IMG/VR virus record: IMGVR_UViG_3300043353_000061
Location: 1-59,076 of that record
Length of the DNA stretch: 59,076 nucleotides
Origin: a virus
Lineage: Duplodnaviria; Caudoviricetes
Reading direction: 5' to 3' (one strand)
The position numbers and the translations under genes were made by a program. This document shows, in pieces, positions 16,326-19,679 of the stretch (within the stretch, counting starts at the first letter, position 1; every line of letters begins with the position of its first letter). The notes under the pieces are model-generated. The model worked only from the letters and a program-made list of their open reading frames with translations, ran no database searches and was not told the origin of the DNA.

Positions 16326-16500
16326 GGTCGGCTCCGGTCGGGGGTGGTGTTGGCTTGTCTGCACTTACTCTACACAAGCGGTTAACCGCTGTCAACCGCG
16401 TCTGACAAGATTTTCGGACTTCTTGTTTTGTTACCGCGAACCGCCGGACGTGGTATCCTTGTCCTGTCCCAACAGGAGGGCTGCGTGTACGATGATTACC

Positions 16501-16716
16501 ATGAGCAAGAAGAAACAGAACAGCGGTAAGCACTCCGCACCGCGTCGTGCCGTTCAGTTCCCGGCCGCCTGGATCGAGGCCGCCGAACAGGAAGCGTCCA
16601 CCCGGCCCGCGCCGGTCATGTGGTACATCGTCGAACTCATCAAGAAGGACTTGGAAGCGAAAGGGAAGAGAACGCCGCCGACACCTTGGCCGCCAGCCGG
16701 CACCGCTCCGAAGTGA
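16501..16716 (+). CDS. Ribbon-helix-helix-like regulator
   Basis: RRAVQFP strand plus two helices; divergent; GCGGTTAACCGC palindrome at 16378-16389. Confidence 0.6.
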   Translation: MSKKKQNSGKHSAPRRAVQFPAAWIEAAEQEASTRPAPVMWYIVELIKKDLEAKGKRTPPTPWPPAGTAPK

Positions 16717-16749
16717 TCCCTAACCGATACTGTACAAGTGTGAGGTGCG

Positions 16750-16790
16750 ATCCGCTCGCCGTCAACCCGGCCGGGCGGATTTTCTGTTTC
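16750..16790 (+). terminator. Probable intrinsic terminator
   Basis: ATCCGCTCG...CGGGCGGAT stem followed by TTTCTGTTT. Confidence 0.5.
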
Positions 16791-16895
16791 GTGCCTAAGT
16801 GTTTCGTCTTCGGGGAGTTGGGGCGGAACTACCTGTTCGGGCGTACAGATTTTCTTGACTTCGGCTTGCCATCGTTGATGGTTTGGAAGTGAAAA

Positions 16896-17345
16896 GGGCT
16901 GAGAGGTTCTAACCCCCTCAGCCCCGGTGGTTCAGCGGTGACGGCCGCGAAACCACACCCGTGAGATTCTAGTATCCACCACGGGTTGTGCGTTTTCAAG
17001 CCGACACTTCCGAATCCCCCACCGATAGCCCCAGATTGGGCGAGCCTGTGACGCCGAAGGTTCCCTTGCGAGGGTCGGCGTAGCCCTGCCACCAGCTTCG
17101 TCGGTGGCAAACGGTGACCCGGTTGCGGGTTGCCGAACCGTCAGTGCCCGTTGACTCCGAGCCTTAAAACGGGAACAACGCTGAACGGCAGGCAGGGTGA
17201 AAGCCCCGGATGCCTGAACAAAACACCGGGGACGGTCAATGCGTACTACCGGCTCCATACCGGGAACGTCCGACCGCCACCGATTCCGCAAGGGGTCGGT
17301 GTGCACCTACCTCACCTCCCAAGAATGTCCACAGGAGTAGGGCAC
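16896..17345 (+). ncRNA. Candidate large structured noncoding RNA
   Basis: About eleven consecutive stem-loops, no credible ORF; strand tentative. Confidence 0.5.
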
Positions 17346-17418
17346 TCAGGACAGCGTGAGCGACAACCATCACCCACAGCCGACCCCGCCGCCCGGCGGG
17401 ATACCGGAGGGAGTGCCG

Positions 17419-17814
17419 ATGAGCGACATGAGCGAGGAGACGCGGGCACAGTTGCGGACGGCGTTCGTGGCCCTCCTGTCGGCCACGGATGGTGGCATGG
17501 TGGCGGTGCGGGTGGACCGGCAGAGGGACAAGCCAGTCGATGTGGAGATGTGGGGAAGTCCAAGTGCGACCGTTCACCTCACCACCGAGAAACAACTCGC
17601 CCTTTCCGTCCTGCTCGGCGACCAAACGGTGTCGGTCGCCTACGTCCTCGACAAGTGCCAGGACGACGGGTCGTTCGTGCTGCGGTCGGCCGACGAGGTG
17701 CGGGCGGAGGAGCGGGAGCGGATTCTGTCCGCCGTGTGCGAACGGTACGAGCACTTCGCCGGCGACGAACACCCGAGCGCCGTGATTGACCTCGTCTCGG
17801 CCGCGTGCCGCTAG
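17419..17814 (+). CDS. Hypothetical protein
   Basis: GGAG RBS, GC3-biased ORF (alternative start 17356). Confidence 0.6.
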   Translation: MSDMSEETRAQLRTAFVALLSATDGGMVAVRVDRQRDKPVDVEMWGSPSATVHLTTEKQLALSVLLGDQTVSVAYVLDKCQDDGSFVLRSADEVRAEERERILSAVCERYEHFAGDEHPSAVIDLVSAACR

Positions 17815-17841
17815 GCGGCCCCGTCCAGCCGGGCGGCCACG

Positions 17842-18867
17842 TCAACCGGCCTGCTCCCGAGAAGCCACGTCCCGTAGCCCGGCGATATTCTGTCCGACGT
17901 GTGAATAGGTCCGTTCGATCATGCCGATACTCGTGCCCACCAGCGCCGCCACCCGCGCTGCTGGCACCCCGGCCTCCAGCCGCTCGGTGATGTAGGCGTG
18001 TCGCGTCGCGTACACCGTCGGGGCTGTGATGCCGGTCGTCGCCATGATCGCCCGCCATCGGCTGTTCACGTTGCCCATCGTTAACTTGTGCCCGCGGTGG
18101 TTGCGGAACAGCAGGCCGGAGCCGTACTTCACCCGCTGGCGGGTGAGGGCGAGCACCGCCGCCGGGGAGAAGATGATCGTCCGCAGCTTGCCGCTCTTGG
18201 CCGTCTTGTGGTCCCTCAACACCGCCTGCGCGTTCCGCCAGTCGATCCCCTCGACGGTCAGCCCCCGCACCTCCCCCGGCCGGGCGCCGCTCTCCCACAG
18301 CACCCGCAAAAAAGCCGCATAGTCGCCAACCGCCGCCGCCTCAGCCCTGACGAACTCGGCGGCGCTCACCAGGCAGTCGGCCCCGCGGTACTCGGCCGGC
18401 GGGATTCGCACCCGGAACGCGGCACACCCTGCCCACCGCACGAACGCCTGCGCCGCCGCCAAGGTCTGCCGGACGGTGCCCCGCCGCCACCCCTCCCGGC
18501 CCGCTTCCCGCTCCACCTCCAGCGGGTCGAGGTGTTCGACGTTTCTCGCCCCGAATGTTCGAACAAGCCATGCCAGCCGGTCGGCGACATCCGTGGCGGT
18601 CTTCTGCTTGATCCTGTGCCGCACGTCCGCCACGTACTTCGGCACCAGCCCGGCCACGGTGCCCGCCCTGACGCGCTCAGAGGCCCGTGGTTGCGCGTTC
18701 GCCGGCACCCCCGCCGCTTTCAGTGCCTCGCCGAGATCGGCCGCCAGACGCGCCAATTTGGCCACCGCTTCCGCCTCGTCGGGACCCAGATTCACAAGCT
18801 TGCCCCCGTGCTTCGTGTAGTAGGCGCCGCGTCCGTTGCGCTGCCACACTTTTGCCGGCCGCCCCAT
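17842..18867 (-). CDS. int: Tyrosine integrase
   Basis: SGARPGE (R), KTAK, YATRH (HxxR variant), VGTS..MIERTY. Confidence 0.92.
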   Translation of the reverse strand: MGRPAKVWQRNGRGAYYTKHGGKLVNLGPDEAEAVAKLARLAADLGEALKAAGVPANAQPRASERVRAGTVAGLVPKYVADVRHRIKQKTATDVADRLAWLVRTFGARNVEHLDPLEVEREAGREGWRRGTVRQTLAAAQAFVRWAGCAAFRVRIPPAEYRGADCLVSAAEFVRAEAAAVGDYAAFLRVLWESGARPGEVRGLTVEGIDWRNAQAVLRDHKTAKSGKLRTIIFSPAAVLALTRQRVKYGSGLLFRNHRGHKLTMGNVNSRWRAIMATTGITAPTVYATRHAYITERLEAGVPAARVAALVGTSIGMIERTYSHVGQNIAGLRDVASREQAG

Positions 18868-18884
18868 ATTCGCCTCCTTGCGAA

Positions 18885-19090
18885 ATGGTGTCGTTTGGTG
18901 TGCCGGTACGCTCAGGATCGCGCATAACGCCTGAAAACGCTAGGCGGGATCGTAGAACTTTCTTGTCCGAACTCTTTAACGGACAAAGGTTTACGTCGAT
19001 CCGTCCGGCGTGCGTTCCGGCTGAAAACGTAGGGGGTATAGACGGAAGTGCGGGGTGCGCCAAGCGGAACGGGTTTGGTGTTCGGGGAGT
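18885..19090. other. Probable attP region
   Basis: Noncoding, next to int; repeated GTTTGGTGT and CTGAAAACG flanking a TTGTCCG..CGGACAA inverted repeat. Confidence 0.5.
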
Positions 19091-19157
19091 GGTCAGAATG
19101 TGGGCGGGGAACGACTTGGGTGGACCCGTCCCCTTACCCCTCATACCGGCGAGATGT

Positions 19158-19679
19158 TTACAGACTGGAGAAGTCAACGACGCGGGCGGGAAGTGGTTTG
19201 AGCGGTGCCGCTTTCCGCATCCGGTTGATAGCCTTCTTCGCCTTGCGGAGCGTCACCTTTTTGCCCCCTTCGAACTCCGCGGCCTCGTGGCAAGACCTGC
19301 ACACCGGAACCAGATAGCGGATTTGCTTCCCGGACAAGTCGTTGGCATGGTATCGGTTGTGGTGGACCTGCTCTGCCGGGTTCGAACACGCCACGCACCG
19401 CCGCCCCTTCGCGGCAAACACCCTTGCCCGCACCTGCTTCCACAGATCGCTTGCCAAGTATTCGGCGTAGGTGGAGAACCCCATCGCTTTGAGGTTCCGC
19501 TGCCGGCTGGCGTAGTCGTTGCCGTACACCTCTGGTGCGTTCCCGGCCTTCGAACGCTTGCCGTTCTCGGTGCGGCAGTCGGCGCACCACAGCATTACCT
19601 TCCCGTTCGCTTTCAGGAAGGCTTCCGACGGCTTGTCTTGTTGGCACTTGAGGCAGGATTTCAACATGCGATGAACCAT
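19158..19679 (-). CDS. HNH endonuclease with N-terminal zinc finger
   Basis: CLKC..CADC; CVAC..VHHNRY..VCRSCH. Confidence 0.8.
   Translation of the reverse strand: MVHRMLKSCLKCQQDKPSEAFLKANGKVMLWCADCRTENGKRSKAGNAPEVYGNDYASRQRNLKAMGFSTYAEYLASDLWKQVRARVFAAKGRRCVACSNPAEQVHHNRYHANDLSGKQIRYLVPVCRSCHEAAEFEGGKKVTLRKAKKAINRMRKAAPLKPLPARVVDFSSL

Follow-up and report, generated by a model that had tools for sequence, protein, structure and literature searches.

A conserved, doubly pseudoknotted RNA in phages and satellite-like elements of the Gemmatales: a predicted new family with a possible cis-acting role

Positions 17024–17328 of the plus strand of IMG/VR virus record IMGVR_UViG_3300043353_000061 can be read with high confidence as a conserved RNA that has two pseudoknots and belongs to a family not present in Rfam 15. 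The window analyzed here is that whole record, a stretch of 59,076 bp with an estimated completeness of 75% that encodes an HK97-type capsid, portal, large terminase, ERF recombinase, sigma factor, and tyrosine integrase. An earlier, sequence-only reading of this DNA had marked 16896–17345 as about 450 nucleotides (nt) of back-to-back hairpins near the integrase, with no convincing open reading frame (ORF), and had proposed a large structured RNA or, failing that, a single-stranded origin-like DNA structure. The role that we tentatively favor for the RNA, and which may well be the right one, is that of a cis-acting leader or intercistronic element acting on the co-oriented genes behind it.

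Twenty-two distinct homologs, from Gemmatales genomes, IMG/VR phage contigs, and metagenome contigs, were gathered by BLAST, degenerate pattern scans, and a covariance model of the 3′ domain (R1; 120 positions). The covariance model match in the window, at 17184–17306, scores 124.6 bits. BLAST of 17150–17340 against 267 Gemmatales genomes gave matches in 10; six places in five genomes (E of 1.3e-7 or better) were accepted, and seven weak places were left aside (three in G049 and one each in G071, G086, G122, and G266). A degenerate pattern had six matching stretches in IMG/VR, and contigs of JGI metagenomes supplied 35 more. Twelve of these 41 had flanking conserved blocks, and the remaining 29, chance matches in coding DNA lacking such blocks, were dropped by eye; a second pattern recovered the same five viral contigs. 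R1 re-matched all five RNA-bearing viral records, with two places in phage G418, and found 13 places in nine of 151 Gemmatales genomes (three places in G064, two each in G061 and G080). One of these matches, in Limnoglobus roseus (L184:1501-1611, 36 bits), is a host intrinsic terminator with a T-run and was rejected, leaving eight genomes; its hairpin, CCCGATCCC-GCAA-GGGGTCGGG followed by the T-run, closely resembles helix P9 of the family. A phylum-wide sample of 151 genomes yielded two weak R1 matches, the false one in L. roseus and one in G298 (30.9 bits). Among the genomes searched, the RNA is restricted to Gemmatales. Five other sequencing runs (fresh water, soil, sludge) share 5–9% of sampled words, and in the four runs compared over 16400–17900, 10 of the 15 contig pieces listed fall in 17112–17330, where they are 80–98% identical to the window and have unlike flanks.

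The predicted fold comprises two H-type pseudoknots (PK1 and PK2), the hairpins P2, P4, P6, and P9, and a long-range helix, P5. MAFFT was used to align 17 full-length members without reference to the structure, and 89.0% of the 925 cells belonging to 57 pairs in nine helices were then paired, vs. 36–49% when partners were slid. Compensation followed the same pattern, with 29 of the 57 pairs changed on both sides (10–21 in the slid controls) and a covariation score of 0.298, compared with 0.068–0.093 for the controls and reached by none of 500 shuffles. The full-length comparison supports P2, P4, P5, P6, PK2, and P9, and does not support the candidate helix P1.

Homology begins at a conserved AUAGCC (17024) and stops at CCCAAGAAUG (17327). 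Directly after AUAGCC lies the P1 candidate (GCCC...GGGC, 17028–17041), conserved in sequence and 77.6% paired; its pairing is unproven, no pair being changed on both sides, and the hairpin was rejected. P2 (17051–17081) has an outer helix (17051–57 with 17075–81), where five of seven pairs are changed on both sides, and an inner helix (17063–66 with 17071–74, UGCG loop), where three of three are. PK1 (17082–17109) follows, between P2 and P4, and is built of stem 1 (AGC, 17082–84, with GCU, 17095–97) and stem 2 (UGCCACC, 17087–93, with GGUGGCA, 17103–09). Of the 17 members, 14 form this arrangement, using different sequences to do so, and in none of the 14 do more than 17 of 300 shuffles equal it; the arrangement was not found in L134, L135, or L182. 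P4 (17113–17134) is a hairpin of GGUGACCCG and CGGGUUGCC with a GUUG loop, 89.3% paired and with double changes in four of nine pairs. P5 (17138–17188) joins CCGUCAG (17138–44) to CUGAACGG (17181–88) with six of seven pairs double-changed, and encloses P6 (CCCGUU, 17147–52, with AACGGG, 17168–73), where the count is five of six and where a contig of run X5 has CGGUU...AACCG instead.

PK2 (17189–17231) consists of stem A (17189–93 with 17212–16) and stem B (17204–09 with 17226–31). Its loops are the near-invariant AGGGUGAAAG (17194–17203) and an A-rich stretch (17217–25), and near-invariant unpaired nucleotides in and around it form the two stretches AGGGUGAAAG and GAACCAAACA. Across the alignments 98.6–99% of PK2 cells are paired, vs. 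28–54% with slid partners, and both crossing stems carry double changes. When 15 sequences of the 3′ domain were aligned with MAFFT, stems A and B were each 100% paired, with two double-changed pairs apiece; judged as an H-type pseudoknot, PK2 has stems A and B 99–100% paired, with two and three pairs changed on both sides. In a model-based alignment of 22 rows, where stem A was not part of R1 and the rejected L184 match is still counted as a row, three helices are 98.6% paired (30–54% slid), with seven double changes and a score that none of 500 shuffles reached. The compensatory changes recur in contigs of other runs, for example 17191 G>C with 17214 C>G (two runs) and 17193 C>G with 17212 G>C, and stem B of the second G418 copy reads CCUCUG/CAGAGG. 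RNAalifold preferred a nested GGG/CCC hairpin for the 3′ domain, and the crossing stems A and B fit better. Behind PK2 comes a variable middle region (17232–17277) whose structure is not settled and in which GGCUCC is conserved in most aligned members, then the hairpin P9 (17278–17301; CACCGAUUCC-GCAA-GGGGUCGGUG), 96–97.5% paired and closed by C-G, G-C, U-A, or G-U, and finally a C-rich 3′ tail (17302–17328) ending in CCCAAGAAUG, likewise conserved in most aligned members. No pairing partner could be shown for the tail: pairing with the 5′ loop was suggestive in single sequences (8 bp in L133) and inconsistent across members, and pairing with the PK2 loop (GGUGA/UCACC) was not above shuffles.

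All of the stems listed in the sequence-only reading are present in the sequence. Its ACGCCGA/TCGGCGT corresponds to P2, TGCCACC/GGTGGCA to stem 2 of PK1, CCCGTT/AACGGG to P6, and CACCGATTCC-GCAA-GGGGTCGGTG to P9, and covariation or consistent pairing bears these four out. CAGGCA/TGCCTG, which had been drawn as enclosing GGG-TGAAAG-CCC, is real as stem A of PK2; the inner GGG/CCC is 94% paired without any double change, and its CCC strand covaries with the downstream GGG. ACGGT/ACCGT (69% paired) and GGACG/CGTCC (16–52% paired, not conserved) are no better than shuffles, and CCTAC/GTAGG lies outside the conserved part. The larger proposal, an unclassified large structured RNA of the plus strand, is borne out by the compensatory changes found by aligning homologs, which extend to at least eight helices including the two pseudoknots, and with the lack of a match to any Rfam family.

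The RNA region is non-coding: codon periodicity is missing, stops interrupt every one of the six frames in five of the 17 members, and the core carries indels. Codon-position GC periodicity is absent from approximately 16840–17240, between genes with third-position GC (GC3) of 0.8–0.95; the conserved part of the window has stops in all six frames; and the core contains 1-nt indels along with a 10-nt deletion in its most conserved block. The earlier statement that no convincing ORF is present can be retained. A 33-codon ATG frame at 17239–17340, in the same frame as the next gene (ORF152) and ending in TAG 15 nt before the GTG of that gene, marks where the GC3 signal begins to rise; it lies inside the conserved RNA and is probably due to chance. 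As for the strand, the conserved part folds with a z-score of −3.13 on the plus strand and −0.87 on the minus strand. Of 21 rows, 16 have U-G at one pair of P9, which read from the opposite strand would be a mismatch of A with C, and G-U pairs also occur in P4 and P2. The loops of the family include GAAA, GCAA, and GAGA; in PK1 as in PK2, the third loop is rich in A. The G-U pairs, the GNRA loops, the z-scores, and the orientation of the genes all point to a plus-strand RNA, as the earlier reading had argued from G-T pairs and the GCAA loop.

The 450-nt stretch that had been proposed as a single structured unit does fold better than dinucleotide shuffles (16896–17345; z −4.79 on the plus strand and −3.22 on the minus strand, with none of 100 shuffles as good on either), but only 17024–17328 is conserved. 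Its first 125 nt (16896–17020) are strongly structured yet missing from all other family members. They hold two plus-strand, lineage-specific hairpins outside the family: hairpin 1 (16896–16925; GGGCTGAG...CTCAGCCC) and a long imperfect hairpin (16926–17018; z −5.56 for the fold of 16886–17022). Outside the window they were found only in near-identical pieces of two further metagenome runs; a contig of run X2 spans 16909–17059 with one difference, and a contig of the soil run X4 is identical over 16883–16935 with flanks unlike the window. The conserved RNA itself exists in a long form of approximately 305 nt and a short form of approximately 190 nt, the latter being the 3′ module only (P5 to the tail). 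Four copies are of the short form (L130, L149 and the identical L166, and the second G418 copy).

By sequence comparison the family appears new, with no homology found to any catalogued RNA, while the broad kind has precedents in ornate phage-borne RNAs of unknown function. The 4227 models of Rfam 15 gave no match in the whole window at the gathering threshold, and in nine loci with other members (132 kb) the single match was a tRNA at a distance of 7 kb. With the cutoff relaxed to an E of 10, for the window and L133, only noise of 10–12 bits appeared (sR46, SCARNA6, HOTTIP_1, and Transposase-2, the last covering the GCAA hairpin alone). A blastn search of GenBank phages with 16730–17400 gave no match. 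No such RNA was found in the literature for planctomycete phages, where supplementary tables of large noncoding RNA surveys might list the motif, and the part of a noncoding-RNA-mining preprint covered by a check of terms does not mention Planctomycetes, Gemmata, or terminase.

Every copy of the RNA lies in phage-like or satellite-like DNA, co-oriented with its neighbors in nearly all loci, and in 12 of 18 loci a co-oriented gene starts 20–105 nt behind P9. The genes that follow encode sigma region-4 proteins (L189, L190, and L192), RusA (L140 and L175), a small terminase (L132), and products without assignment, including ORF152. On the upstream side, the RNA of L158 starts 20 nt after a helicase gene. 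L192 and L189 share an order of integrase, operator-like repeats, RNA, sigma-like gene, strong intrinsic terminator, prohead protease with a helix-turn-helix, probable capsid, and small terminase; the terminator stands approximately 610 nt downstream of the RNA and before the head genes. This compact element (L192:6000-13635; also L189 and L190; genomes G062 and G064, twice in the latter), with a probable capsid protein of 455 amino acids, is satellite-like, resembling capsid-forming phage satellites. In phage G418 there are two copies that have diverged from each other and lie 32 kb apart, both ahead of co-oriented genes: a full copy (C1:46988-47111; L205:8989-9112, minus strand), which leads a cassette of two genes placed in reverse orientation between those for the large terminase and the portal, and a short copy (C1:14720-14832; L206:8721-8833, minus strand) in the early region.

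A cis-acting element is favored because of the tight, co-oriented placement before unrelated genes, the near-zero gap in L158, the two diverged copies of G418, and the layout of RNA, sigma gene, terminator, and head genes. In the window, a longer rightward transcript would carry the small gene 5′ of the RNA (a possible ribbon-helix-helix gene), the lineage-specific hairpins, the RNA, and ORF152, and the RNA would act in cis on expression of the co-oriented genes behind. The single best guess at a mechanism, speculative and by itself unlikely, is antitermination in the manner of the put sites of phage HK022 or of EAR in Bacillales, whereby the RNA would bind the transcribing RNA polymerase and render it resistant to terminators; the other cis roles, namely transcript processing, stabilization, and translation control, are improbable even when taken together. 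The put RNAs are approximately 70 nt long, have two stem-loops and no pseudoknot, and are phage-borne, transcribed at the start of an operon, and co-oriented with the genes that they control. The put and nut sites can occur twice per genome and need no conserved neighboring protein gene. The RNA described here is like putL and putR of HK022 (and, more loosely, lambda nut) in being phage-borne and co-oriented, in allowing two copies, and in lacking a conserved neighbor protein, and the two G418 copies recall paired put/nut sites. It differs in size (190–305 nt) and in its two pseudoknots, shows no sequence likeness, and has no terminator behind it in the window. EAR, a processive antitermination element, is similarly a structured, pseudoknotted cis element inside a long operon; it differs in host phylum, size, and context, and no EAR match was found in Rfam.

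Several points weigh against a cis-acting role, and against antitermination in particular. Six of the 18 loci have no convincing gene start close behind the RNA, and the terminator scan found none between the RNA and ORF152 in the window. A promoter scan made no upstream call in the window, L192, L189, or L140. Transcript ends, strand, and expression are all inferred from sequence. Elaborate folds are more typical of ribozymes, riboswitches, and ornate trans-acting RNAs, and put RNAs are far smaller and without a pseudoknot. Finally, the shuffle controls overstate significance, as the 22 distinct sequences come from one bacterial order and include several close kin.

A stand-alone, trans-acting ornate RNA of the kind of GOLLD, ROOL, or the pRNA of phi29, which would serve a phage or host partner as scaffold, decoy, or assembly factor, is a possible though doubtful alternative. 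A complex fold of two pseudoknots and about nine helices, with strongly conserved unpaired nucleotides, would suit such a molecule, as would its retention in very different mobile elements, including compact ones composed of integrase, RNA, sigma, protease, capsid, and small terminase genes, and its frequent position just before head and packaging genes. However, a trans-acting RNA accounts poorly for two diverged copies in one phage genome and for a next gene so close behind it in 12 of the 18 loci, and the scan of the window found no terminator after P9. Nor does a protein partner accompany it: no protein is common to all carriers, and only a helicase family is shared, by five loci (25–1124 nt upstream of the RNA in four of them), and among the five RNA-bearing phage records the sigma factor of the window has a weak match in one and ORF152 in none. 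GOLLD and ROOL are likewise large, intricately folded, and found on mobile elements, often in prophages; they measure 500–800 nt and usually lie beside tRNA genes, whereas the present RNA is smaller, has no Rfam match, and has a tRNA within the fetched 16 kb in one of 12 loci, 7 kb away. ARAGORN found no tRNA or tmRNA in the window and none at the RNA in the 12 loci, which speaks against the RNA being a tRNA or tmRNA, including an attP fragment of one.

It is quite unlikely that the RNA is a new catalyst, self-cleaving or of another kind, by which polycistronic phage transcripts are processed between their genes. Small ribozyme classes are common in phage intergenic regions, and the RNA shares with the hammerhead, twister, hepatitis delta virus-like, hatchet, and pistol ribozymes a place between co-oriented genes and a pseudoknotted core with invariant unpaired bases, here near-invariant single-stranded purines. 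Against this, none of the known families matched even at E up to 10, the RNA is three to five times larger than these self-cleaving classes, and no conserved cleavage-site signature was identified. Hammerhead-like strings in L135 (CUGAUGAG...CGAAAC) have the wrong topology and are missing from other members.

A riboswitch-like sensor of a metabolite, ion, or signaling nucleotide that gates the next gene is very unlikely. The RNA does lie 5′ of a gene in 12 of 18 loci, its pseudoknot is pocket-like with invariant loop nucleotides, and an alternative 3-bp GGG/CCC pairing competes with stem B of PK2, but the downstream genes have no common function, and neither a conserved expression platform (terminator or sequestered start) nor a match to a riboswitch model was found. 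A suspected likeness to the cyclic di-AMP riboswitch (ydaO-yuaA), in the short strings GGGUGAA..CC, CCGAACC.GUCAG, and UCCGACA and in having a pseudoknotted fold, was dropped after no Rfam riboswitch matched the window or L133 at E up to 10; the genes behind the RNA are unrelated to cyclic di-AMP biology.

There is only a slight chance that conservation acts at the level of DNA, in an attP, a cos or pac site, or a replication or single-strand origin with hairpins formed in the DNA. In the window a single gene separates the RNA from the integrase, and in L189, L190, and L192 the RNA directly follows an integrase, approximately 440–480 nt downstream of it, so that the nearness to an integrase noted earlier holds for the window and in all for four loci only. 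It also follows helicase genes in four loci, and the L130 copy is cut inside P4 at a junction with host genes, as a half att site would be. On the other hand, intact copies occur inside integrated elements next to their own integrases, neighbors vary, and the distance to the small terminase ranges from 86 nt to tens of kilobases. No tRNA lies at or beside the RNA, and crossing compensated helices, strand-specific G-U pairs, and GNRA loops are unexpected for protein-binding double-stranded DNA sites. The single-stranded origin once suggested fits poorly with pseudoknots that have A-rich loops, with tailed double-stranded DNA phages, and with the varied contexts, covariation alone not being decisive here. 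Least probable of all are chance GC-rich hairpins or an unrecognized protein gene: with a genome GC of 60–70%, long open frames arise by chance on both strands, and a minus-strand frame of 124 amino acids overlaps the RNA region in the window and L129, but compensatory conservation, the missing periodicity, the stops and indels given above, and covariation of adjacent variable columns with no period of three already refute this as far as computation allows.

Few bacterial RNAs are at once large, intricately folded, and strongly covarying, and the majority of those studied have proved to be ribozymes, riboswitches, or unusual assemblies; in the host phylum, phages and RNA biology are almost unexplored. 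The present RNA is retained by unrelated mobile elements, at times twice in one phage, and its pseudoknot core is compact and highly conserved. Should its target be RNA polymerase, or its task the processing of transcripts, phages would have in it a new way to time gene expression, and if it acts in trans, it would add another class to the short list of ornate phage RNAs. A bolder view, which we hold to be improbable as a whole, is that of a new large RNA class by which Gemmatales phages and capsid-encoding satellites would control gene expression without a protein factor, through either a new large ribozyme or an RNA machine that binds polymerase or ribosomes; the pseudoknot with AGGGUGAAAG and GAACCAAACA would be its active center and the 5′ domain an optional module.

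The host of the phage is very probably a planctomycete of the order Gemmatales, because the integrase relatives retrieved with an alignment are nearly all from metagenome-assembled genomes of Gemmataceae and other Planctomycetota, together with L. roseus, a member of the Gemmatales. The integrase (17842–18867, minus strand; PF00589, E 3.4e-15) is convergent with the RNA unit. The relatives compared in the integrase alignment are at most 37% identical, and others reach 55–61%. The RNA was absent by blastn and nhmmer from the first 80 of the 80 + 34 integrase-relative loci. The plus-strand gene 5′ of the RNA (16501–16716, 71 amino acids, with a GC3 signal) has no match in Pfam or PHROG; by eye its product would resemble a ribbon-helix-helix, cro-like regulator. 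ORF152 (17356–17814, plus strand, 152 amino acids from GTG, GC3 0.86) lies 3′ of the RNA and is co-oriented with it. Its likelier start is the ATG at 17419, with GGAGGGAG just before. No Pfam or PHROG match was found for it, nor relatives in viral contigs, and single queries with ORF152 and the integrase found no close relatives in viral or genome contigs.

Upstream of the hairpins, a possible plus-strand promoter (16855–16883) has TTGACT at 16855–16860 and a poor −10 hexamer; the consensus scan made no call there, and this is weak evidence. The contig of soil run X4 has TCTTGAC at an equal distance upstream of its copy of 16883–16935. The upstream 170 nt of the members have no common motif by eye. 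An 18-nt direct repeat (16768–16785 and 16838–16855; 78% identical, 70 nt apart, ending in GATTTTCT) has a second copy that runs into the TTGACT hexamer, and these repeats may be regulator sites. On the minus strand, hairpin 1 with TTTTCACTT (16895–16925) scores like a terminator, and no minus-strand gene ends nearby.

Upstream of the integrase there is a 21-nt direct repeat (18919–18939 and 19009–19029, 76% identical), and a pile-up of four weak BLAST matches from three Gemmatales genomes at 18985–19024 may be part of attP. A search with 18850–19170 gave weak matches of 21–39 nt in eight of 267 genomes, with no tRNA there, and attP was not located. In other loci, L192:7530-7590, between integrase and RNA, has four tandem 11-nt units resembling GACCCGACCCTT followed by a palindrome, and ACCTTTAAAGGT palindromes occur in L192 and L189; these units and palindromes look like operators or iterons. 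The L130 copy (L130:8003-8160, minus strand, G244), which lacks the 5′ domain, sits at the border of an element that encodes an SNF2 helicase, a sigma factor, and a DNA methylase. Directly beside this copy are a PD40/DPP-IV-like gene of the host and the terminator of that gene. The copy may be a remnant left by decay, or one half of an att site. In L193 (7209–7811, minus strand, G081), a protein of 200 amino acids that matches the RNA polymerase alpha C-terminal domain (PF03118, E 4e-6) is encoded some 230 nt downstream of a family member that is divergent.

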